Below, in pieces: positions 6,912 through 23,434 of a DNA stretch of 64,000 bases. Every line of letters begins with the position of its first letter. Within the stretch, counting starts at the first letter, position 1. A program made the position numbers and the translations under genes. This DNA is from Alphaproteobacteria bacterium. GTDB lineage: Bacteria; Pseudomonadota; Alphaproteobacteria; JAEUKQ01. A model generated the notes under the pieces. That model saw only the letters and a program-made list of their open reading frames with translations. It was not told the DNA's origin and made no database searches. The stretch lies in the NCBI GenBank assembly GCA_044227605.1, contig JBGAWJ010000001.1, positions 4,404 through 68,403 on the forward strand. The letters run 5' to 3'.

Positions 6912-7092
6912 TTACGTTGCCCGAAAAAGGGTCAGGGTTTTGATTAATCCCCCCCCTTATATTTAAGGCACGGCTTGAATATAATGCTAGGGGCAAGGAT
7001 ATAGGGAACTATGAAAGGGTTGGGTGAATTGGCCTTTTGGACCAGAGGGATTCATAGCGATAGAATGGTTTTATTTGAGAGCGATGGGGCAA

Positions 7093-9627
7093 ATGTCTCG
7101 ATATAATTTCAAGGAAGTTGAACATAAATGGCAAAAACGATGGGAAAGTAAGCGAACTTACCATTGCAACCCAGATGCTTCCCAACCAAAATATTATGTT
7201 CTTGGCATGTTCCCATACCCTTCCGGGCGGATCCATATGGGCCATGTCCGCAATTATATGATTACCGATGTCATTGCCCGTTATAAAAGGGCCTGTGGCT
7301 ATAATGTGTTACATCCCATGGGATGGGACGCTTTTGGCTTGCCCGCGGAAAATGCCGCGATCCAACATAATATTCACCCAGCCCGTTGGACTTATGAAAA
7401 TATTGCCTTAATGCAGGAGCAATTGAAATCGCTGGGATTTTCTTTCGATTGGTCCCGGGAATTAGTCACTTGCCATCCTGACTATTACCGGCATGAGCAA
7501 AAAATGTTTTTGGATTTGTGGGAAAAAGGGCTGGTTTACCGGAAACAATCGGTTGTTAATTGGGATCCCACCGATCAGACGGTTTTAGCGAATGAGCAGG
7601 TGATTGATGGCCGCGGATGGCGTTCCGGGGCGTTAGTTGAAAAACGGTATTTGTGGCAATGGTTCTTTAAAATCACCCATTATACCCAAGAACTTTTGGA
7701 AGGCCTGGATACCTTAGCCGAATGGCCGGAAAAAGTGCGCACGATGCAGCAAAACTGGATCGGTTTATCGCATGGGGCGCTGGTGCAGTTTGCCCTGTGG
7801 CGGCGGCTGGACGTGATTGATGTCTTTACCACTCGCCCCGATACTTTATTTGGCGCTGCCTTTTGTGCCATCTCCGCGAATCACCCCTTAGCGCTTGAGT
7901 TGGCTAAAAGCAACCGTAAGATTGCCGCCTTTTTGGAAGAATGTGCAAAATCTGCGGTGAATGAAGCAACGTTAGAAAAAATGCCTAAAAAAGGTATTGA
8001 TACAGGTTTAAAGGCTATTCATCCCTTGGATCCCCGCATTGAATTACCGGTTTTCATTGCCAATTTTGTCTATATGGATTACGGCACCGGTGCCATTTTT
8101 GGCTGTCCGGCACATGACCAGCGGGATTTGGAATTTGCCAGGCAATATCAATTACCGGTAAAACCCGTTGTTATCCCTGCCTCACATCAAGCGAACAATT
8201 TTCAAATTCAAGATATTGCTTATACAGAAGATGGCATTTTGCAGCATTCTGATTTCCTAAATGGATTGACAGTGGCAGATGCCCAAAAAAAAGTGATTGA
8301 AAGACTAACCCAAATTGGCAAGGGGAAAGCCCTTGATGCTTTCCGGCTGCGTGATTGGGGGGTATCGCGTCAACGGTATTGGGGCTGCCCTATCCCGGTT
8401 ATCCATTGCCCTGATTGCGGTGCAGTGCCGATGGCTTTGGAAGATTTGCCTTTAGTGTTGCCGGAAGATGTCAGTTTTGATCAGCCTGGCAACCCGCTTG
8501 ATCATCATCCCACTTGGAAATATGTGGATTGCCCGCGTTGCGGGAAGTCCGCGCAACGGGAAACCGATACCTTAGATACTTTTGTGGAGTCTTCCTGGTA
8601 TTTTGCTCGTTTTTGTTCCCCCCAATCCTCCGCTTCTTTTCAAGCCGCCGACGCCCGTTACTGGTTGCCGGTCGACCAATATGTGGGTGGCGTTGAACAT
8701 GCGGTCTTGCATTTATTATATGCGCGTTTTTTTACTCGGGCGTTGCGTGATTGCGGTTACTTAACGCTAGATGAGCCCTTCAAAGGTTTATTTACCCAAG
8801 GGATGGTTGTTCACGAAACCTACCGCCATCAACAGGGCCATTGGCTTTTCCCGGGTGAGGTAGAAAAAAAGCCAGGGGGCGAATATATATGCTCAGCAGA
8901 TCAAACACCGGTTACGGTGGGCCGGTCTGAAAAAATGAGCAAATCCAAAAAGAATGTGATCGACCCGACCCAAATCGTCGAGATGTATGGGGCAGATACG
9001 GCCCGTTGGTTTGTGTTATCCGATAGCCCTCCTGACCGTGATTTTGAATGGACAAATGCGGGTGCTGAAGGGGCTTGGCGTTTTATCCAGAAAATATGGC
9101 GGTTACTATCTTTAGTACCTAACCCATCCCCATCAGCTGAACCCATTTCATTATTCCGCCGGACAATCCATAAAACCATTGCTGGCGTCACCGCTGATAT
9201 TGAGGCTTTCCGCTTTAACCGGGCCATCGCGCGCTTGTATGAATTGGTAAATGCCTTCAGTGACAATATCACTAAAAGCGATTTGCAAGAAGGGTTAGAG
9301 ACATTGGCACAACTGATCCAACCTTTTATGCCCCATTTAGCTGAAGAACTGTGGCAGCAATTAGGCCACCGCCAATCCATCATGCAGCAACCCTGGCCAA
9401 AAGCTGACGCGACCCTTATCCAAGAAGAAACCCACGTGATTGCCATCCAGATCAATGGAAAAATGCGCGATACTGTCACGGTGCGCAAAGACATAGCAGA
9501 ACAAGGATTGAAGGAAAAAGCCCTTCTGCAACCCGCCATACAAAAATTTCTTGCCAATCGGCCGGTTAGAAAAATAATTGTTGTGCCGAATCGCTTAATT
9601 AATCTCATGGTTGATGACAACAAATGA
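7093..9627 (+). CDS. leuS: Leucine--tRNA ligase
   Basis: The HMGH ([13 protein letters not shown]) and KMSKS motifs are present, and LeuS similarity runs the full length. I moved the start to the ATG at 7093 ([14 protein letters not shown]), which matches canonical LeuS N-termini better than the track start at 7024. Confidence 0.95.
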
Positions 9628-10142
9628 AGATAGCACGCCCACCGCTGTCACGATTAATCTGTTTCTTGGTTATATCTTTTTTACTTTCTTCCTGCGGTTT
9701 CCGCCCGCTTTATGCCCCTGCCTTAAGCACCGGCAATACGGGCCTTTCCCTATATAATATTGTGGCTATCAAAGGGCTAAAGGATCGCTTGGGACAAGCG
9801 GTTTATACGGAATTATCCCATCAGTTATTATTGGTACCAGCCCCCTCCGACAACCGGTATATTTTATCCATTATATTAAATGAGGCCGAATCAGACCTGG
9901 CCTTGGATAGGCAAGGTCTGATTATTCGTAAGACATACAAGATAACGGCCACTTATCAATTGCAGCTGCAGGGCAGCGATCCTATTCTGCTCAAGGGGGT
10001 GGCCCAGTCAGACACTAATTTCAATTATGTCCTTTCCGGTTATGCAGCTTATATTGCTAAGGAAGAGGCCCAGTTACGCTTAGCGAAAGCACTTGCCTAT
10101 CAGATCCATCAACGCCTCAGCATTTTCCTAACTGCCTCCTAA
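9624..10142 (+). CDS. lptE: LPS-assembly lipoprotein LptE
   Basis: The lipobox [11 protein letters not shown] is present and the size is right. The position in the conserved leuS-lptE-holA operon also supports the call. The start overlaps the leuS stop by 4 nt. Confidence 0.75.
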
Positions 10143-10145
10143 TAT

Positions 10146-11198
10146 ATGAAGATTTCGCCGCAAAAATTTGAAAGCCTGTTATCATCCCCCACATCACCTT
10201 CCCCTTTTTTTGGTTTTGGAGCGATCCTTATTTTCGGCCCAGATCACAGCTCGGTCAGGGACTATAGTGAACGTTGTATCAAAAAACTGCTGGGCACCCC
10301 TCCCGATCCTTTTCGCTTCAATAGTTTCTTTTGGAATAACGTGCAGGAAACGGGTTTATTAATTGCCGATTGTTTACATGAGTTCCCTTTATCCGGTGGC
10401 CAACGGGTCGTGCAGGTGCGGCAAGTTACGGACAGTTTTTTAGCACCCTTAAAAGACATTTTAACCCGTGGCACCCCTGAAAGCTTCCTGTTATTGGAAG
10501 GGGATGATTTGCCTGCCAAATCTACCCTGCGCAAATTTATGGAAATGCACAGACAAACCGGGTTATTAGCGTGTTATCCCTTAGATGAAAAAGAACAAGC
10601 GTATTTCATTGAACGCACCCTGACCGCCCATGCCCTGAAAACCGATAGGGACGGGTTGCTGCTATTGCAGCGTTATTTACCGGCCCACAAACTGGCCATT
10701 GAAAATGAAATTGCCAAATTAGCCCTCTATCTTAGCCCTCATCTTACCCCATCTTCCGTTAACCTACTGACGGTTGATATCATTTCATTATGTTTGGGGG
10801 ATCAAGGTGAGATATCGCTTCATGATTTGGTTTATAGTTTTGCGGGGCAGAACCTAGATAGTTTTTCAACCCATTACACCCGATGTTTGGCGGAAGGGGA
10901 AACGCCGATTTCGATCATTCGGGCCGTTTTACGGCATCTGCAGCAATTTTGGCGCGCCCGGTTGATTATGGACGGGCAACAGCTTCCCCTTGATCAGGCG
11001 GTCATACAATTAAAACCCCCTATATTCTATAAATACCAGGCCGCTTTTTGCCGTCAACTTTCTTTATGGCCATTTGAGCGCTTAATGGCTGCTTTTCTAG
11101 AATTAACTAATTTGGAAATTCGCTGTAAGCAGCCCCATGCACCCGCCTCAGAAATAACTTTCCACCAATTGCTACAAATCATGCAAATAAATAGTTAA
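10146..11198 (+). CDS. holA: DNA polymerase III delta subunit
   Basis: The 350-aa ORF sits in the conserved position after lptE. The delta-subunit-like N-terminus (FGPDHSSVRDY...) and C-terminal helical domain are present. Confidence 0.8.
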   Translation: MKISPQKFESLLSSPTSPSPFFGFGAILIFGPDHSSVRDYSERCIKKLLGTPPDPFRFNSFFWNNVQETGLLIADCLHEFPLSGGQRVVQVRQVTDSFLAPLKDILTRGTPESFLLLEGDDLPAKSTLRKFMEMHRQTGLLACYPLDEKEQAYFIERTLTAHALKTDRDGLLLLQRYLPAHKLAIENEIAKLALYLSPHLTPSSVNLLTVDIISLCLGDQGEISLHDLVYSFAGQNLDSFSTHYTRCLAEGETPISIIRAVLRHLQQFWRARLIMDGQQLPLDQAVIQLKPPIFYKYQAAFCRQLSLWPFERLMAAFLELTNLEIRCKQPHAPASEITFHQLLQIMQINS

Positions 11199-11241
11199 AT
11201 GCCTCCCCTTAGTTTTTGATGCAGCGGGAATGATAAATGAT

Positions 11242-11257
11242 CGTTTCACGTGAAACA
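11242..11257. other. parS: parS centromere-like site (CGTTTCACGTGAAACA, 15/16 match to the TGTTTCACGTGAAACA consensus)
   Basis: The palindromic 16-mer lies in the parB-holA spacer, roughly 740 bp downstream of the parB stop codon. It differs from the universal parS consensus only at position 1. Confidence 0.7.
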
Positions 11258-11994
11258 AAGAACGTTATAGAAGAATGAAGCCGCCATTATTTCACCTTCA
11301 CGTTACAAAACAGCGCCCGGATAAATATTGGCACTGATATAAATTAGGAAAGGGGCTGGCGATAGGGGATTAAAGCGTTGTAAATTAAGGGATGGGATCC
11401 AGTTAAAATTGCTGGGCCAGCAATTTTTACAATGTTTGTCGCTCACGTAACAACCAGGACAACTGCCTGCTTGATGGGGGTCAACGATCATACGGCCCCT
11501 ATCTTTTCTATCGTAAATTGTGCCAATTAATTGTTGAAAAAATGATCGGTGCGGAACTATGGGAAAGGGAGGTATGAATAAGCGGTTATTTTGGCGCTGT
11601 ATGTAAGGGAAACTTTGGTTCTGATGGGTTTAAGCGGTCTTAGGCTTGCTCACACGGGACGCAAAGCCGATGATGCCAAAAGCCCCTTATCCCGGTTATC
11701 CGCAGCTAAATAAGGCCTGACCGCATCGTCTATAGGACGGGTATCACTCTTACAACGTTCTGAATATTTCTAACTTCAATTACTTCCTTATCAATCATAG
11801 TGTATAGTTCTTCGCCGACAAATCCCCCAAAAGAGCTTCAACCTCTTTCTTGAGAAAGGCATCTTCCCCTTCAATCACAGCACCGTTGCCAACCCATTGA
11901 GTATTTTATAAACTACCCTCATATCCCCCAATCTGGCCCCTCATTAAAATTTCCCACATGCTATCTTGGTATCCAAATGCCATCGCCGTTCCTT

Positions 11995-12876
11995 TTAGGC
12001 AGGTGGCAGACTGCTTTTTTGTGCCTGCAGGCGATGGAGGATGGCTTCTAATTCCTGCAAGGTTTTATACCGTAAGGTGAGCATGCCGCCATTACCCTGC
12101 AACGTGATGCGGGCTTTTGCACCCAGCAATGTTGACAAATCTTTCTCCAGCGAAATAATTTCTGCTTGACGGTTTTGCCAACGATTAGCCGCAATGTTTT
12201 TTAAAGCTTTATGGTTTTTGCGGCTTAATTCCTCTGTCTCTCGCACGCTTAAATCTTCCGCAATCACCTGTCTTGCTAAACGCACGGGATCTTTGGCATT
12301 AAGTAGCGCGCGGGCGTGCCCCGCGGATAAATCGCCGCGCGTCAGTAATTCTTTAATTTCCGCGGGTAAATCCAGCAATCGCATCAGGTTGGCAATGTGG
12401 CTGCGGCTTTTCCCAACCATTTCCGCAATTTCTTCCTGTTTTTTGCCGAATTCATGGAGCAGCCGGTGATAGGCTTCCGCTTCTTCCAATGGCAGTAAAT
12501 CCTGGCGTTGCAAATTTTCAACCAGGGCAATTTGTAGGACTTCCTGGTCATTCATTTCCTTGATAACAACCGGTACTTCTTTTAAGGCGGCAATTTTTGC
12601 TGCCCGCCACCGGCGCTCACCCGCAATAATTTCATACTGTCCCGCAAGATTGGGATGTTTCCTGACCAATAAAGGTTGCAAAATCCCATCCTGCCGGATG
12701 GATCCAGCCAATTCATTCAATTGTTCCGGCAGGAATGTCCGCCTTGGCTGTAAGGTACTAGGCTGCAGGGCATCATGGGCCAGTAGCAGGAATGAAGGGG
12801 ATGATGTTTCTTCGCCTTCCACCATATTGCCAAATAAAGCCGCTAACCCGCGCCCTAAATTTCGTTTTTCAACCAT
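11995..12876 (-). CDS. parB: Chromosome partitioning protein ParB (Spo0J)
   Basis: The N-terminal GRGLAALFG and ParB-box motifs are present, and it sits directly downstream of parA. Confidence 0.9.
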   Translation of the reverse strand: MVEKRNLGRGLAALFGNMVEGEETSSPSFLLLAHDALQPSTLQPRRTFLPEQLNELAGSIRQDGILQPLLVRKHPNLAGQYEIIAGERRWRAAKIAALKEVPVVIKEMNDQEVLQIALVENLQRQDLLPLEEAEAYHRLLHEFGKKQEEIAEMVGKSRSHIANLMRLLDLPAEIKELLTRGDLSAGHARALLNAKDPVRLARQVIAEDLSVRETEELSRKNHKALKNIAANRWQNRQAEIISLEKDLSTLLGAKARITLQGNGGMLTLRYKTLQELEAILHRLQAQKSSLPPA

Positions 12877-12894
12877 GATTTTATACCCCAGAAA

Positions 12895-13677
12895 TTAAAT
12901 AACAAGTTTTTCACGGCGCACCATTTCCGCCGCTAATTGGATGTAAGATTGGGCCCCAACGCTTTGATGATCATATAATAATACCGGTTTTCCGTGGGAA
13001 GGGGCTTCCGATATTTTCACGTTACGCGGGATAACCGTTTCATATACCTTATCCCCGAAATATTGGCGCGCATCCCCCGCCACTTGATTACATAAATTAT
13101 TGCGCCGATCATACATGGTCAAGACAATGCCTTGGATCTCAAGCCCCGCATTCAATCCCGCCCGCACCCGTTCAATGGTTTTAATCAGCAAGCTAAGACC
13201 CTCCAGGGCATAAAATTCGCATTGTAAAGGCACCAAAACTTGCGCGGCGGCGACAAACGCGTTTAGGGTTAATAAATTTAAAGAAGGCGGGCAATCAATG
13301 AAAATAATATCAAAAAGCTTCTTGTCTATTTTTTCCAAAGCCATTTGTAACTTATGTTCACGTTTTGGCATTTCCACCAATTCAATTTCCGCCCCCGCTA
13401 ATTTGATCGAGGCTGGAATGATAAAAAGGTCAGGAACCTGGGTGGCTTGGATCAGCGGGGTTGGGTCCTTATCCGCAATCAGCATGTCATAAGTGGACAA
13501 TTGGCGTTTAGTTTGATCAATCGCCAAACCGGTGCTGGCATTTCCCTGGGGATCTAAATCAACCACCAAAATCTTTAAGCCATACGCGGCTAAGGCGGTT
13601 GCCAGATTCACAGCAGTAGTGGTTTTACCAACCCCCCCTTTTTGATTAGCAATCGCAATAATTCTTGGTTTATTCAT
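12895..13677 (-). CDS. parA: Chromosome partitioning ATPase ParA (Soj)
   Basis: A deviant Walker A motif KGGVGKTTT is present. The likely start is the ATG at 13677 (MNKPRIIAIANQKGG); the track ORF extends 13 codons further upstream. Confidence 0.9.
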   Translation of the reverse strand: MNKPRIIAIANQKGGVGKTTTAVNLATALAAYGLKILVVDLDPQGNASTGLAIDQTKRQLSTYDMLIADKDPTPLIQATQVPDLFIIPASIKLAGAEIELVEMPKREHKLQMALEKIDKKLFDIIFIDCPPSLNLLTLNAFVAAAQVLVPLQCEFYALEGLSLLIKTIERVRAGLNAGLEIQGIVLTMYDRRNNLCNQVAGDARQYFGDKVYETVIPRNVKISEAPSHGKPVLLYDHQSVGAQSYIQLAAEMVRREKLVI

Positions 13678-13779
13678 CAGACTGCCTTTACATTCTAGGG
13701 ATATTTTGCCAACCATGGCAATGGCTGGCTTACTTTACTTGCTTTGCCTATTTTAGAATTTTTTGCCTCGGTTTTGATG

Positions 13780-14415
13780 TTAGGCGATTCGCGTTATTTT
13801 TTCAATGATTAAAATCTTGGCTTGCAAATCTGTTAAACTAGGATGGGCTTGATACGAAAAATTCCAGTGCTTTTGCGCCTGTTGGATTTCTTCTTTCCAT
13901 AATTTCCCTTTTAAGAAAACAATTTTGACTTGGTCATGCCATTGATAGCGGCCAAGGTTAAATAATTGATCCAATTTTGCCAACGCCCGGGATGTTACTA
14001 TATCAGTTTTCAGGAATTCAACCGTTTCTATCCGTTGATTACGTACAGTTATTTTTTTTGATGCAATAGCTGCGGTTCCAAACAGCTGATAGGCAACTTC
14101 CTCCAAGAATATTGCTTTGCGCTGGTCCGACTCCACTAAAACAACTTCTGGGACACCCATGATGGCTAAAACCATTCCCGGCAACCCAGCCCCCGATCCC
14201 ATATCGATTATCTTTTGGGGAAGCGCAGGTAATAAGGCCAGGATTTGGCCGCTATCTAAAATATGACGCTCCCACATATCCCCAACCGTTTCCTCTGCAA
14301 TTAAATTCAACCTTTTTTGCCATTGGGCCAGGAGGGTTACATATAATTGCAGGCGCTGAAACGTTTCACGTGAAACATGTAAGAGGGCGGCACATTCTTC
14401 TGCGGTTTTTGTCAT
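13780..14415 (-). CDS. rsmG: 16S rRNA (guanine527-N7)-methyltransferase RsmG (GidB)
   Basis: The N-terminus has LHVSRETFQRLQ and the SAM-binding motif DMGSGAGLPG is present. It occupies the conserved position between mnmG and parA. Confidence 0.9.
   Translation of the reverse strand: MTKTAEECAALLHVSRETFQRLQLYVTLLAQWQKRLNLIAEETVGDMWERHILDSGQILALLPALPQKIIDMGSGAGLPGMVLAIMGVPEVVLVESDQRKAIFLEEVAYQLFGTAAIASKKITVRNQRIETVEFLKTDIVTSRALAKLDQLFNLGRYQWHDQVKIVFLKGKLWKEEIQQAQKHWNFSYQAHPSLTDLQAKILIIEKITRIA
14362..14377. other. parS: Second parS site (identical 16-mer CGTTTCACGTGAAACA) embedded in the 5' coding region of rsmG
   Basis: The 16-mer is identical to the site at 11242. It overlaps the codons for the conserved VSRETF motif of RsmG. 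Confidence 0.65.
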
Positions 14416-14435
14416 GGATCCAAACTTATGATCAA

Positions 14436-16301
14436 TTATGCCGTTTGGGGAACAGGCTTTTTATAGGCATATTTCAATAAAATTGTTAAAGCCGCCGGGG
14501 TGATGCCCGGAATACGCGAGGCGGCCCCAACACTATACGGCTTGGCTTGATTAAGCTTTTTTTGCAGTTCGGCTGACAACCCCGGAATAACTGAAAAATT
14601 CAAGGAGGGTGGCAAAAAAAGTTCTTCATCTTGACGGAATAGCCGGATATCGCTTTCATGCCTTTTCATATAACCGGAATATTTGGCTTCAATTTCTAAT
14701 TGTTCCACAATAGCGTTTGGCACCCCCCCTAGATTGGGAAAAATTTTGCATAATTGCTGCCAATCAACCAGTGATGAAGACAACACATCCAATACAGATC
14801 GTTTAACCCCGTCCGCATTGACGCCCACACCCAAACGTTGCCATTCTGTCGGGGTGGCCGACATTTTTTCAAGTGTTTGCTGCGTGGCCTGTAATTGTTC
14901 CATTTTGGTCATGTAATGCTGCTGGCGAGCAGTGCCCACACACCCTATTTTGATTCCTCGCCCGGTTAACCGGCGATCGGCGTTATCACTGCGCAAATGT
15001 AGGCGATATTCTGCCCGTGAGGTAAACATGCGGTAGGGTTCATTTGTTCCCAAGGTAACCAGGTCATCGATCATGACTCCGATATAGGATTCACTGCGGT
15101 CAAAAATTTCAGGTGCCTTTCCACTGGCCTTATAAGCAGCATTCAATCCGGCCACAATCCCTTGGGCTGCGGCTTCTTCATAGCCCGTCGTTCCGTTGAT
15201 TTGGCCTGCCAAAAACAGGCGGGGCATTTTTTTTGCCTCCAGCCAAGGATATAATTCCTTTGGGTCCACAAAATCATATTCAATGGCATATCCCGGCCTG
15301 ATCACTTTCGCATTGGCTAAACCCGGGATGGTTTTTAACAAAGCCAGCTGCACATCTTCTGGCAGGGACGTGGAAATGCCGTTGGGATAAACGGTATCGT
15401 CATCCAAACCCTCCGGCTCTAAAAATATCTGGTGCCGGGAACGGTCGGCAAAACGCACGACCTTATCTTCAATAGAGGGGCAGTAACGCGGCCCAATGCC
15501 TTCAATTTGCCCAGAATACATGGGGGAGCGATGCAAATTTGTCCGAATAATCGCATGGGTTTCCTCATTCGTGGCGGTTAAATAACAAGGGATTTGTGGG
15601 GTTGTAATAGCCGTGGTTAGATAGGAAAAAGCTGGGATGGGAACATCACCGGGCTGCTTCTCCAAGCCTGACCAATCAATAGTCCGCCCATCTAGTCTGG
15701 GAGGAGTCCCTGTTTTCAATCGCCCTAATTGAAAGCCTGCTCGCTCGAGTGCATTTGAAAGACCTAAAGACGGTTTCTCCCCAACCCGGCCCGCTGGAAT
15801 CTTTTTCTCACCCATATGGATCAGGCCGCGTAAAAACGTACCGGTGGTAATCACCACAGCGCCCGCATAAAGGTTCTTTCCTTCCGCTGTCTGCACACCG
15901 ATGATTTCCTGGTTTTTCTCATCAAATAAAAGATTTTCAACAGATGCCTGGTAAATCTCCAAATTTGCCTGTTCCGCCAAGGCCGATTGCATGGCCGCTC
16001 GGTATAATTTACGGTCGGCCTGCGCCCGCAACCCTCGCACAGCATGCCCTTTACTGGCGTTTAACATACGGAATTGGATGCCTGCTTTGTCAGCCACCCG
16101 TCCCATCAACCCATCTAGCGCATCAATTTCCCTGACCAAATGTCCCTTGCCCAACCCACCAATGGCTGGGTTGCAGGACATCTCCCCAATCGTTGCCTGT
16201 TGGTGGGTCACCAGCAATGTCTTGGCCCCTAAACGAGCCGCCGCCGCCGCCGCTTCACAGCCAGCATGACCACCCCCAATGACGATCACATCTACTTTCA
16301 T
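14436..16301 (-). CDS. mnmG: tRNA uridine-5-carboxymethylaminomethyl modification enzyme MnmG (GidA)
   Basis: The FAD-binding N-terminus [14 protein letters not shown] is present, and the 621-aa protein is GidA-like over its full length. Confidence 0.95.
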
Positions 16302-16360
16302 CTTATAAACCCTACCGTTCTGAAAATTATTCGCCTTATATTAGATACGGATGAATTTGC

Positions 16361-17743
16361 CTACTTGCCAATGCAAAATTCCCTGAAAATAACGTCCAAC
16401 ATCTCTTCGATATGGACCCGCCCGGTGATTTCACCAAGGGCCCTTATGGCCAAGCGAAGATCTTCGGCCATTAATTCTATAGATACGGTCATATCAGCTT
16501 GCTCTAAGCTCAGCAAGCATTTTTCCAATGCTTGGCGGTGGCGGTGGCGGGTAATCAGGGGTGCAGAACCAATTGCTGTTCCTACCATTTTTTCTATTTT
16601 CTGTTTCAAGAAGCCCATAAAATCCGCTAAGCCAGCGCCCGTTTGCAAACTGATAAAAAAAGTATTAGCTGCTGCTGCGATAGGAACAGGGGATGATAGA
16701 TCAATTTTATTGACCAAAAAAATTGTCTCCGAAGTGACTAATTCTAAAATATCCCCGGGTATTTTTGGCCAATCTTGCGCCGAAACCATCAGCAGCTGGA
16801 TATCACTTACCAATGCGTGCTGGCGCGCCCGCCTGACACCTTCCTCTTCAATGCTATCGGTGGTTGGCCGCAACCCCGCCGTATCGGCAATCGTGACCGG
16901 CACCCCCCCGATGTTCAAGGTGGTTTCTACAATATCGCGGGTCGTGCCAGCAATAGGGGAGACGATGGCAACATCCCGCCTTGAAAGCCAGTTAATCAGG
17001 CTTGATTTGCCAGCATTTGGTGGGCCTATGATGGTCAGCACCAATCCTTGCCTGATTCGTTGGCCGCGATTGCCGTCTGCCAGGTGGTTTTTAATCTGGG
17101 TTTGCAAATCAGCTAATTTTTGCTTGACCATGTGGTTTAATTCAGCCGGTAATTCCTCATCAGGAAAATCAATATAAGCTTCGAGGTAAGCCGCCATATG
17201 CACTAAGGCACGCCGCCAAATTTCGTATAATTTTCCTAGTTCCCCTTGATATTGGCGTAAAGCTTGGCGACGCTGGGCTTCCGTTTCCGCGGCAATTAAA
17301 TCGGCCAATCCTTCGACGGCCGTCAAGTCTAATTTTCCATGTTGAAAGGCCCGTTTGGTGAATTCGCCAGCTTCCGCAAGACGGGTTTCAGGAAACTGCT
17401 GTAATTCCTTAATCAATATTTCCACAATGGCGCGGCTGCCATGCACCTGCAATTCCGCCATATCTTCCCCCGTAAAACTGGCAGGGTTGGGAAACCACAA
17501 AACCAAGGCCTCATCCAGGATTTTAGCGGCCAAGTCATTCAGGCTTCCTGAATTATAACCGGCCCTATACAATAAACGCTTATGGGCCGAACGCGCGGGC
17601 GGCAACTCTCTTTGGGTGATTTGGGTTAAGATATCGGCGGTTTTTGGGCCAGAAATACGAATAATGGCAATCGCTGCGGGCAATGACCCGGTCGATAAAG
17701 CAAAAATGGTTTCCGTTAGAGGGAGATCAGCAGGAAGGGACAA
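16361..17743 (-). CDS. mnmE: tRNA modification GTPase MnmE (TrmE)
   Basis: The N-terminus TIFALSTGSLPAAIAIIRISG is canonical. The G domain has GPPNAGKSSL and DTAGLR, and the protein ends in the C-terminal CIGK motif. Confidence 0.95.
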   Translation of the reverse strand: MSLPADLPLTETIFALSTGSLPAAIAIIRISGPKTADILTQITQRELPPARSAHKRLLYRAGYNSGSLNDLAAKILDEALVLWFPNPASFTGEDMAELQVHGSRAIVEILIKELQQFPETRLAEAGEFTKRAFQHGKLDLTAVEGLADLIAAETEAQRRQALRQYQGELGKLYEIWRRALVHMAAYLEAYIDFPDEELPAELNHMVKQKLADLQTQIKNHLADGNRGQRIRQGLVLTIIGPPNAGKSSLINWLSRRDVAIVSPIAGTTRDIVETTLNIGGVPVTIADTAGLRPTTDSIEEEGVRRARQHALVSDIQLLMVSAQDWPKIPGDILELVTSETIFLVNKIDLSSPVPIAAAANTFFISLQTGAGLADFMGFLKQKIEKMVGTAIGSAPLITRHRHRQALEKCLLSLEQADMTVSIELMAEDLRLAIRALGEITGRVHIEEMLDVIFREFCIGK

Positions 17744-18101
17744 GGGGAGATTTATCCGTTGGTTTTAACATCAATCGATCGACAATCTTCCCTTGCAGAA
17801 GGTGGTTTTGGACGATTTCCTCAGCCTCTTCTACCGTTTGGCAATGATACCAAATGCCTTCTGGGTAAACCACCACCACCGGGCCTAACTCACACCGGTC
17901 TAAACAGCCCGCACTGTTAATACGCATATCATCAAGCCCTAATTCCTTAGCGCGCGCCTTCATATAATTTCGCAGTTTTTCCGAACCTTTAACCTTACAT
18001 GAGCCGCGCGCATGATCGGCAGGACGCTCATTGGTGCAAAAAAATACATGATTGCGGTAATAAAGCGGAACAGGTGAAGTTATCTTTTGGGGAGGGTTCA
18101 T
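17727..18101 (-). CDS. Thioredoxin-like (2Fe-2S) ferredoxin-domain protein
   Basis: Cys residues in the FFCTNERP...C...AGCLDRCELGP arrangement are characteristic of thioredoxin-fold 2Fe-2S ferredoxins. The ORF overlaps the mnmE start by 17 nt. Confidence 0.6.
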   Translation of the reverse strand: MNPPQKITSPVPLYYRNHVFFCTNERPADHARGSCKVKGSEKLRNYMKARAKELGLDDMRINSAGCLDRCELGPVVVVYPEGIWYHCQTVEEAEEIVQNHLLQGKIVDRLMLKPTDKSPLVPSC

Positions 18102-20452: not shown

Positions 20453-21519
20453 CACTGGCTCGCTTTCAGCTGGTTGCGTTGGTAGCACCCACTTTTGGAA
20501 GAAGGGCAATGACCTTTCAAAGAACAGTTCGTTATAGATGATTTCGACCGCACGGCCTGTTCCGTTAAATTCGTAAGTCCCTGGATAAATATTTCATCGG
20601 TACCCACGGTCGGTAGCCGTCTGTAAAAAGCGGCACCTGCTTCTAAAGCTAAATCCCGGTACGTGATATCCAGCTCAACCAGCGTTTCTGAATGCTCGGA
20701 TACAAAGGAAATCGGCACAATAACCAACCCTTGATGCTGGTTGCTAAGCTCGCGAATCACATCCTCACTATAAGGCTTGAGCCAAAGGACAGGCCCAACG
20801 CGGCTTTGATAGGTAATTTGCCATTGATCTGGCTGCAACCCTGCTTTTTCCGCTACCGCCGCCGCAGATATGGCAATATGGGTGTCATAGGGGTCACCTT
20901 GCTCCACAATTTTTTGCGGTAAGCCATGGGCAGAAAAAAGGACTCGGTAAGGGATTCCTGGAAAATCCTGCTGCAACTGGACAATTTCTTTTTGTAATGA
21001 TTTGGCCATCACTTCCGTAAAACCAGCCAATTCTGGATAACAACAAATACTGGTTACAGCAGCAGGGTGACCCTGTTTTCTCCACGTTTTTTGCCAATCA
21101 TCTAACGACGACGCGGTGGTGGTGGTCGAAAATTGGGGGTATAGGGGTAGGGCGATGATTTGGTTGGGGTTAAAATTTCTGACTTCTTCCGCCACTTGCT
21201 GGCTAAAGGGGTGCCAGTATCGCATCGAGATAAAAACTTTTACGACATCTTTGGTAAATCTTTGCTGCAGGTGCTTTTCCAGGATTTGTGCTTGTTTTTG
21301 GGTGTTTGCCAAAATCGGGCTGCCTCCGCCCAAATACCTATAGATTTTTTTGGCCTTTTCTTGCCGGCGCCATGTAATAAATTTAGCCAACAAAAACCTA
21401 AGGGGTTGTGGGGCTTTGATAATGGCTTTGTCTGAAAATAAATTATATAAAAAGCCTGTAACCGCTTCTTGGCTATCTGGGCCGCCTAAATTGAATAAAA
21501 TAACCGCTATACGAGCCAT
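20452..21519 (-). CDS. hemH: Ferrochelatase
   Basis: The 355-aa ORF shows ferrochelatase family similarity throughout (for example FSAHGLP, VGPVLWLKPY). Confidence 0.9.
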   Translation of the reverse strand: MARIAVILFNLGGPDSQEAVTGFLYNLFSDKAIIKAPQPLRFLLAKFITWRRQEKAKKIYRYLGGGSPILANTQKQAQILEKHLQQRFTKDVVKVFISMRYWHPFSQQVAEEVRNFNPNQIIALPLYPQFSTTTTASSLDDWQKTWRKQGHPAAVTSICCYPELAGFTEVMAKSLQKEIVQLQQDFPGIPYRVLFSAHGLPQKIVEQGDPYDTHIAISAAAVAEKAGLQPDQWQITYQSRVGPVLWLKPYSEDVIRELSNQHQGLVIVPISFVSEHSETLVELDITYRDLALEAGAAFYRRLPTVGTDEIFIQGLTNLTEQAVRSKSSITNCSLKGHCPSSKSGCYQRNQLKASQ

Positions 21520-22547
21520 TATTTTCCTCTCTTGACCAGTTCAACCAATTGGTAGACATTTTCCAATGGCGTTTGAGGAAGGATGCCGTGGCCTAAATTA
21601 AAGACAAATTTCTCCCTACCCATTGTTTGTATAATATTTTGTACTTCATTTCTTAAATTCTCTGGATCCCCAAGTAAGGTAAACGGATCTAGGTTTCCCT
21701 GGATGACATAAGACCGTTTAGTCGAGGTCTGCAACGATGGTAGGGGAACGGAACTATCTATGCTGATCGCATCTGCTTTTAATTGTTGCATATGGGGTAA
21801 ATAATTCCAATAACCACCTTTTGGAAAAATAATAATGGGTGTTTTAGGAAATTCCTTTTTTATTTCCTGGATAATGTAGGAAGTGGGGTTTATCCCCCAT
21901 TCCTTCATAGCCTCCACTGAGAGCAGTCCTATCCAGCTATCAAAAAGTTGGACTATTTCAACACCTGCCCTAATTTGCTCGGATAAATACCAGATGATTG
22001 CTTCCGACAATGTTTTAATTAATTGTTTAAATATCTGGGGTTTTTGGTAGGCAAGCAACCGCGTGTTAAAAAAATCCTTACTAGAGCCTTGATCAATCAT
22101 ATAGCAAGCCAGTGTCCACGGACAACCTGAAAACCCTATAAGGGTTGTTTCTGCAGGCAATTGGCTTTTGACAAGTTTTACGGTATCAAATATAGGGCTT
22201 AATTTTTCTTTGAACTGCTCCTTTAAAAAGGATAGGGGGTTTTCTATATTTTCAAGGGAGGAAAGCTTAGGGCCCTTGCCTTCCACAAAAGTTACCTCTT
22301 GTCCAAAAGCGTAAGGGATAACCAAAATATCAGAAAATAAGATAGCACCATCAAAACCAAATCTTCTAATGGGTTGTAACGTTGCTTCGGCTGCAAATAC
22401 TGGGTTTAAGCAAAAATCCATGAAATTTTTAGCTTGCCCGCGTAATTTTCTATATTCGGGTAGATATCTGCCAGCTTGCCGCATTAACCATATCGATGGG
22501 CGAGTATTTTCACGGGTAAAAGTTAAAAGTAATTCTTTTTTCATCAT
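21519..22547 (-). CDS. hemE: Uroporphyrinogen decarboxylase
   Basis: The N-terminus PIWLMRQAGRYLPEY is the HemE signature. It is translationally coupled to hemH through a 1-nt overlap. Confidence 0.9.
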   Translation of the reverse strand: MMKKELLLTFTRENTRPSIWLMRQAGRYLPEYRKLRGQAKNFMDFCLNPVFAAEATLQPIRRFGFDGAILFSDILVIPYAFGQEVTFVEGKGPKLSSLENIENPLSFLKEQFKEKLSPIFDTVKLVKSQLPAETTLIGFSGCPWTLACYMIDQGSSKDFFNTRLLAYQKPQIFKQLIKTLSEAIIWYLSEQIRAGVEIVQLFDSWIGLLSVEAMKEWGINPTSYIIQEIKKEFPKTPIIIFPKGGYWNYLPHMQQLKADAISIDSSVPLPSLQTSTKRSYVIQGNLDPFTLLGDPENLRNEVQNIIQTMGREKFVFNLGHGILPQTPLENVYQLVELVKRGK

Positions 22548-22843
22548 TAATATTTATATAAATAATATTAGTATTGGTAGTAGGGGGCTATAAATAGTGG
22601 AAATAAAAATTATTAAAATAGTATCAACAAACTTATCATTAATTTTTTTTATATAATATAGTGGTTAGAATGGATTAGGGAAGGTTTTCCAACTTATCCA
22701 CTAGTTCTATGAAAAAATATCCCCTTGTGAATAGATCAATGAATGAAATGTTAATAAAAGGGAAGAGAAAACAATGCAGGCTATTTATCCACAGTTTGTT
22801 AGAGATGCTAAAAAGGGGTGCTTTAAAGCACCAGGAAAAATAA
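22548..22843. other. oriC: Candidate chromosomal replication origin (oriC): AT-rich unwinding region plus DnaA boxes between hemE and maf
   Basis: The 296-bp intergenic region has a very AT-rich stretch (about 22550..22680). DnaA-box matches sit at 22694..22702 (TTATCCACT, 8/9), 22727..22735 (TGTGAATAG, reverse orientation, 7/9) and 22785..22793 (TTATCCACA, 9/9). Gene strand switches here, and hemE adjacency fits the conserved alphaproteobacterial ori position. Confidence 0.55.
22785..22793 (+). promoter_or_regulatory. Perfect DnaA box TTATCCACA
   Basis: This is an exact 9/9 match to the DnaA-box consensus, inside the hemE-maf intergenic region. Confidence 0.55.
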
Positions 22844-23434
22844 ATGGATAACATCGTTTTGGCATCAAGTAGCAAGATTCGGGCTATTTTACTTAAAAAT
22901 GCCGGGATTAGGTTTAAAGTACAACCGGCGGATATTGATGAAAATAAAGTGCGCCGGGCCATGGCCACCAAGCCAATCCACGCTCAAAAAATCTCTCATA
23001 TACTGGCCTTAGAAAAAGCACGGAACGTCTCCGCGTTGGTAAAAAACAGCTATATTATCGGGGCCGACCAAGTATTGATTGCCCAAGAAAAGATTTTTGA
23101 AAAACCTGGAACTGAGAAAAAGGCCGTGCAACAATTGTTGGAACTTGCGGGTAAAACCCATCAATTGTGGACAAGTTGTGTTGTTGTTAAAGACGGGAAG
23201 GAACGATGGCATTATACCGCCAAAGCCTCGATGAAACTGGCCAGCCTTTCGCCAGCCAGTGTAGAGGGATATATTAAACGTAACCCGCGGGTGGTTGATT
23301 GTGTTGGTTCTTACCAATTGGAGGGGGAGGGGATCCAACTTTTCGAGAAAATTAGAGGTGACTATTTTTCCATTCTTGGATTACCATTGCATCCTTTGAT
23401 CCTTTTCTTAAAAAAAGAACTATTACTAAGATAA
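22844..23434 (+). CDS. maf: Maf-like nucleotide pyrophosphatase (septum formation protein Maf)
   Basis: The N-terminus VLASSSKIRAILLKNAGI and the remaining Maf motifs are present over 196 aa. Confidence 0.85.
   Translation: MDNIVLASSSKIRAILLKNAGIRFKVQPADIDENKVRRAMATKPIHAQKISHILALEKARNVSALVKNSYIIGADQVLIAQEKIFEKPGTEKKAVQQLLELAGKTHQLWTSCVVVKDGKERWHYTAKASMKLASLSPASVEGYIKRNPRVVDCVGSYQLEGEGIQLFEKIRGDYFSILGLPLHPLILFLKKELLLR

Follow-up and report, generated by a model that had tools for sequence, protein, structure and literature searches.

Two predicted parS centromere sites around parAB, one of them inside rsmG, in an uncultured alphaproteobacterium

Introduction

Chromosomal parS sites, including those that lie within genes, are textbook elements of bacteria, and we describe here two predicted ones that bracket the partition genes parA and parB in a stretch of 64,000 nucleotides (hereafter the window) from an uncultured alphaproteobacterium (Alphaproteobacteria bacterium, GenBank assembly GCA_044227605.1, contig JBGAWJ010000001.1, positions 4,404 to 68,403). 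In Bacillus subtilis, parS is reported, in the work of Lin and Grossman in 1998 and of Livny and colleagues in 2007, to lie inside spo0J (parB) and to have the consensus TGTTNCACGTGAAACA. It is, like those of the window, a 16-bp palindrome with this consensus and lies, like one of them, within a coding sequence close to the par genes, and it nucleates ParB spreading; it differs from them in its phylum, in its host gene (spo0J instead of rsmG) and in belonging to a set of 8-10 sites across the origin-proximal region. Closer to the present case is the chromosomal parS cluster of Caulobacter crescentus, reportedly described by Toro in 2008 and treated by Tran and colleagues in 2018 (PMC5815017). 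Caulobacter is, like the organism of the window, an alphaproteobacterium with the same parAB gene neighbourhood, and some of its parS sites fall within genes that cannot be disrupted, as one site of the window falls inside rsmG; the cluster comprises 7 candidate sites (5 strong) over ~10 kb (PMC5815017), whereas the window offers two in 64 kb, recognized from sequence evidence. Another alphaproteobacterium, Hyphomonas neptunium, also possesses two near-consensus parS sites (TGTTTCACGTGAAACA) (PMC7022226).

Viewed alongside these systems, the locus is an ordinary new instance of parS, found in an uncultured lineage. The reading that we favour, and to which we give a probability of roughly 88% from comparative sequence analysis, is that both sites are functional chromosomal parS centromere sites of a type Ia ParABS system. 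In addition, the site in rsmG turned out to belong to a class-wide pattern in which a DNA word and a protein motif occupy the same bases. A literature search for parS within gidB/rsmG, or for its overlap with the corresponding VSRET residues, found no description, and an earlier survey (Livny et al., 2007) or specialists of the field may already have it.

Two parS words and the proteins encoded between them

The 16-mer CGTTTCACGTGAAACA is present in exactly two copies in the 64 kb, at 11242-11257 (site 1) and 14362-14377 (site 2), both on the plus strand with a start-to-start distance of 3,120 nt, and 100 dinucleotide-preserving shuffles of the window gave no match to it. Each copy departs from the parS consensus TGTTTCACGTGAAACA by one mismatch (15 of 16 positions) and, with up to three mismatches allowed, these two copies are the only matches in the window; the 16-bp inverted repeat of chromosomal parS sites (tGTTtCAcGTGAAAca) is thus present twice, each time at 15 of 16 positions. 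Exact search and mismatch scan hence agree with an earlier note on this DNA, made from the letters alone, which had reported the word at these two places. The same note had called both copies perfect palindromes, which holds for the inner 14 bp (GTTTCACGTGAAAC) and fails for the outer pair, where C and A remain unpaired. The flanking DNA of the two copies being unrelated, no duplication larger than 16 bp can be at their origin.

Site 1, which reads TGTTTCACGTGAAACG on the parB-sense strand, lies outside the open reading frames (ORFs), 738 nt beyond the parB stop codon and 44 nt beyond the stop of a convergent ORF (10146-11198), in agreement with the non-coding position downstream of parB that the earlier note had assigned to it. 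Site 2 is located inside rsmG (gidB; 13780-14415, minus strand), the gene of the 16S rRNA m7G527 methyltransferase, upstream of parA by 685 nt when counted to the ATG at 13677 and by 646 nt when counted to the alternative ATG at 13716. The two sites flank the minus-strand genes rsmG, parA and parB, and both parA and parB are encoded between the two copies, so that the proposed bracketing of parAB is upheld; the distances of 2.4 and 0.1 kb formerly given to the ends of parAB have to be replaced by ~0.65-0.69 kb on the parA side and 0.74 kb on the parB side.

Regarding the protein expected to bind these sites, parB (11995-12876, minus strand) encodes all three Pfam domains of the family (ParB_N, HTH_ParB and ParB_C) together with the motif GERRWRA. 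Its closest solved structure is Caulobacter crescentus ParB (6T1F, E=1.8e-64), with which the DNA-binding region aligns without gaps, and the residues contacting parS, their numbering and their roles are known from the Caulobacter co-crystal structure (Jalal et al., PMC7383237). Contact residues Q162, G170, K171, S172, N178 and R204 of Caulobacter are all conserved in the window ParB, as Q147, G155, K156, S157, N163 and R189, respectively. This is also the case for R173 and G201, the parS-specific pair described as absolutely conserved in ParB (PMC7383237), which correspond to R158 and G186. Two variable positions, T179 and A184, are occupied by L164 and D169, neither of which is the Noc-type lysine. 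From these residues, the window ParB is predicted to be a reader of canonical parS and should recognize such sites. A cognate ParB, with its CTPase motif (GERRxRA), helix-turn-helix (HTH), C-terminal dimerisation domain and contact residues, is thus encoded at the locus as judged by sequence, and so is a partner ParA, the parA gene (12895-13677, minus strand; Pfam AAA_31, CbiA and MipZ/ParA) being located 18 nt upstream of parB. The closest named relatives of both RsmG and ParB are only ~45-55% identical.

A predicted centromere word inside the rsmG coding sequence

On the coding strand of rsmG, site 2 begins with the third base of H13 (caT), runs through V14 (GTT), S15 (TCA), R16 (CGT), E17 (GAA) and T18 (ACG), and is followed by F19 (ttt). 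The reading frame hence confirms that this copy falls among the 20 initial codons of rsmG, over the residues VSRETF, with V14-T18 as the overlap. The site is kept in all the conspecific contigs that cover it (L001-L006 and L089-L095).

The rsmG loci of 80 alphaproteobacterial species (L007-L086), with a locus GC content of 29-74%, served as comparison set. RsmG has VSRET at the aligned position in 59 of these 80 loci, and the codons used there are nearly frozen: GTT, TCA and CGT each in 59/59, GAA in 58/59 and ACA in 46/59. The combination GTT-TCA-CGT-GAA occurs in 58 of the 59 loci, versus 0.20 expected from local codon usage (computed for each locus from its own mnmE, mnmG, rsmG, parA and parB), and the codon that precedes VSRET ends mostly in T, completing the 16-mer. 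As a control, the invariant S-adenosylmethionine-binding motif GSGAGxPG of the same gene takes every synonymous codon. VSRET (residues 14-18) is moreover N-terminal to the Pfam GidB match (residues 20-199), and loci without parS at this place have either unrelated residues (VSSQT, VSDDA, LSSSQ) or a shorter N-terminus.

Variants of the word change the protein accordingly. The parS variant GTTCCACGTG gives VPRET (L019), the variant with CACATG gives VSHET (L021 and L028), the one with CATGTG gives VSCET and the one with GAATCA gives VSRES (L081), and the lineage variants found in rsmG recur at other parS sites of the same locus. These locus-wide dialects suggest that ParB specificity co-evolves with its sites. 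Since the codons are frozen and the variants carry the protein along, it is the DNA word that is constrained, the amino-acid motif being its consequence. The dual constraint on coding and on ParB binding that the earlier note had proposed for rsmG is therefore sustained at the DNA level by the 58 of 59 loci against 0.20 expected and by the unconstrained control motif. On the evidence of these alignments, the rsmG site is an ancient overlapping code, in which the parS word sets both the codons and the VSRET residues. With less assurance, we lean towards the view that VSRET answers no requirement of the enzyme and is the shadow that a centromere casts in the protein, parS having stood at this place since early in the class. 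Under such a scheme, the RsmG residues would follow whenever the parS dialect drifts (VPRET, VSHET, VSCET, VSRES), and the motif would be released once ParB is lost from the locus, as for VSPET in the relative L087 (see below).

Dialects of parS were seen in loci L019, L021, L024, L028, L060, L066, L072 and L081. The form TGTTCCACGTGAAACA is common to all the sites of the Marinicaulis locus L019, TGTTTCACATGAAACA to all those of L021 and L028, and TGTTTCACGTGAATCA to all those of the respective loci of Filomicrobium, Stappia, Microbaculum, Pseudovibrio and Cohaesibacter. Among the contigs closely related to the window, the rsmG site of L093 (metagenome-assembled genome, MAG, GCA_016722635.1; positions 2488-2503) is a perfect TGTTTCACGTGAAACA, its T18 codon being ACA and not ACG as in the window, a synonymous change that places the site on the consensus.

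When parS words with at most one mismatch were counted in the 80 loci, recurrent positions emerged. The position at rsmG codons 13-18, which is that of site 2, recurs in ~56 loci. Next come the position directly after the mnmE stop or upstream of mnmG (~48 loci), that at around residues 460-479 of mnmG (~9 loci), the mnmG C-terminus (FHVK in some loci) or the mnmG-rsmG spacer (~8 loci), and a position at around residues 106-112 of rsmG (4 loci); a site downstream of parB is found in 3 loci (L028, L042 and L059). Further dual-coding centromere sites thus seem to exist, in mnmG and at residues ~106-112 of rsmG.

A conserved site in an unstable spacer, and a relative without canonical parAB

Seven contigs of related strains or species (L089-L095), among which is the MAG GCA_016722635.1 labelled "Rhodospirillaceae bacterium", have 90-94% nucleotide identity to the window. 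Every related contig that reaches beyond parB keeps a site past the convergent ORF in unchanged orientation, and site 1 is invariant in the six in question (L089, L090 and L092-L095), while its flanks and the spacer vary. In a 171-column alignment of seven sequences, the longest invariant block is the 16-mer with a few flanking bases. Substitutions and large insertions or deletions are found in the nearby spacer, an indel hot spot even among strains that are 90-94% identical: in this comparison, the length from parB to the site goes from 301 nt (L093) through 796 nt (the window) to 882 nt (L090 and L094), the L092 spacer contains two additional small ORFs (100 and 98 aa), and window positions 11359-11634 can be aligned to no relative.

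The closest distinct relative of the window is L087, whose RsmG is 75% identical and whose flanks, from hemE to leuS, have ~77% nucleotide identity. In this locus, the segment that in the window runs from 11178 to 13793 and contains parA, parB, the spacer and site 1 has given way to 2.8 kb of AT-rich DNA without relation to it (L087 positions 10623-13466). The inserted segment consists of ~1 kb of repeat-laden non-coding DNA, with imperfect ~50-nt repeats at 11090-11630, and encodes a small ParA-like ATPase of 208 aa (27% identical) and a 97-aa protein without a recorded Pfam family; it resembles a partition cassette of the plasmid type (type Ib-like) that was swapped into a chromosomal par locus. 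No ParB homologue was found within the 20.6 kb of the L087 locus, and one may be present elsewhere in that genome. In the same 20.6 kb, no parS with three or fewer mismatches was found either. The RsmG of L087 has VSPET, encoded by GTT, TCC, CCT, GAA and ACT (GTTTCCCCTGAAAC), so that the palindrome core is altered at two places. The sites are thus missing from a locus that has no canonical parAB, as a constraint imposed by ParB predicts.

Putative origin and proposed function

An origin next to hemE is the usual arrangement in alphaproteobacteria. In the window, the spacer between hemE (21519-22547, minus strand) and maf (22844-23434, plus strand) covers 22548-22843 (296 nt), is AT-rich and contains matches to the DnaA box at 22694 (TTATCCACT) and 22785 (TTATCCACA); the cumulative GC-skew minimum and a dip of the GC content to 0.39 are both located at ~21-24 kb. 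We consider that this spacer is probably oriC. Site 2 is 8.2-8.5 kb away from it, which fits the ~8.4 kb between the nearer site and the origin given by the earlier note and makes the sites origin-proximal with respect to this putative origin; in Caulobacter, the parS sites are ~8 kb from the origin (PMC5815017).

From established ParABS biology, ParB binding and spreading at the two sites and a role in segregation are inferred, along the following lines. ParB dimers would recognize GTTTCACGTGAAAC through their helix-turn-helix, bind cytidine triphosphate (CTP), form closed clamps and slide off onto the neighbouring DNA. In Caulobacter, ParB loaded at one site spreads over ~2 kb (PMC5815017), and two sites 3.1 kb apart could give rise to one continuous ParB zone of ~7 kb, at ~8-11.5 kb from oriC. 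Such a zone would encompass the 3' part of mnmG, rsmG, parA, parB, the spacer at 11258-11994 and the last part of the convergent ORF. The genes in it are transcribed away from the origin, co-directionally with replication. ParA would then segregate the ParB-coated origin region, and loading of SMC is likely.

Alternative explanations

The functional reading of both sites is supported by the cognate ParAB, the contact residues of ParB, the constraint on rsmG, the invariance of site 1, the loss in L087 and the nearby origin. Several points nevertheless count against it. The parS scan covered the 64-kb window only, which bears on the full complement of sites and on their clustering around the origin. 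Each site has one outer position that differs from the 16-bp consensus. The place of site 1, after parB, is rare, being used in 3 of the 80 comparison loci, and the relatives that keep this site have diverged little, its conservation being supportive yet only modest evidence. Finally, no parS, not even a decayed one, is present in the window between mnmE and mnmG, where other alphaproteobacteria most often have their second site.

The one alternative with some room left, which we find improbable, is that the two sites are minor or vestigial parS that persist by inertia, the working centromere lying outside the window and the rsmG copy being kept because a change in it would alter the RsmG protein. 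Beyond the 64-kb limit of the scan and the missing post-mnmE site, it can draw on the fact that two of the seven candidate sites of Caulobacter bind weakly (PMC5815017). However, inertia cannot explain synonymous positions that are fixed across 59 species, even at 60-74% GC, nor is it compatible with a non-coding site 1 that survives the indels of its spacer and with the decay of both sites in L087, the locus without canonical parAB. The perfect 14-bp core is in addition at least equal to the strong Caulobacter sites (PMC7022226).

A second alternative, for which we see very little room, gives the palindrome another role, either as a hairpin in mRNA or at a terminator or as an operator for a different CACGTG-binding regulator of rsmG-parAB. 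A 14-nt palindrome can indeed form a short hairpin, and site 1 is only 44 nt after a stop codon. However, neither copy has a T-tract after it or was called terminator-like, the counts of a promoter and terminator scan of 11100-16500 not exceeding those of shuffles. What is conserved is the sequence and not the pairing, as the CACATG variants break the symmetry without compensation, and the word recurs around parAB in both orientations, in coding and non-coding DNA. Regarding structured RNA, no Rfam match was found, either at gathering thresholds on the whole window or at E<=1 on 11150-12050, and a tRNA scan found nothing; therefore, no RNA gene explains the spacer or the palindromes.

Least probable of all is that the rsmG copy merely encodes VSRET and that the intergenic copy is a chance or duplicated fragment, for although none of the codons GTT, TCA, CGT and GAA is rare at 45% GC (joint local expectation 0.011), pure coding coincidence is excluded by the cross-species codon counts (58/59 loci versus 0.20) and by the free codon choice of GSGAGxPG, while no shuffle yields the 16-mer, the flanks of the copies are unrelated, and VSRET stands outside the GidB match and gives way to unrelated residues in parS-less loci.

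Significance

If the favoured reading of the rsmG site is true, the VSRET overlap would be among the oldest and most widespread codes shared by a protein and a DNA site in bacteria. For the genome of the window, the two predicted sites annotate the centromere and provide an anchor for the region near the origin in an uncultured alphaproteobacterium that is Rhodospirillaceae-like. More generally, a class-wide parS in rsmG could serve as an alignment-independent marker of the centromere and origin region in alphaproteobacterial MAGs and as a natural reporter of lineage-specific shifts in ParB specificity. It also cautions against taking conserved protein motifs as the mark of a constraint on the protein.

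Gene neighbourhood and minor observations

The gene map of the window was established from its ORFs and a Pfam scan. Upstream of the par genes in the direction of their transcription are mnmE (16361-17743, minus strand; Pfam TrmE/MnmE) and mnmG (14436-16301, minus strand; Pfam GIDA), followed by rsmG (Pfam GidB, E=3.5e-38), and the order mnmE-mnmG-rsmG-parA-parB is kept in nearly all of the 80 comparison loci. The parA gene is called at 260 aa in two contigs (L001, L093) and at 273 aa in two others (L089, L090). On the other side and on the plus strand, leuS (7024-9627) and an lptE-like gene (9624-10142) precede the convergent ORF at 10146-11198, which encodes 350 aa, has no Pfam match at E<=0.001 and is conserved, with a counterpart in L087, L090, L093 and L094; by synteny alone, that is its place after leuS-lptE, we take it to be holA-like. 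The spacer from site 1 to the parB stop (11258-11994, 737 nt) holds only a 62-aa ORF and no convincing gene, and a repeat search in it returned short two-copy repeats at chance level. A weak echo of the word, TTCACGTTAC, lies 52 nt from site 1 and was not taken as a half-site. Lastly, a conserved cysteine-rich ORF of 124 aa without Pfam match at E<=0.001 (17727-18101, minus strand) overlaps the start of mnmE by 17 nt.

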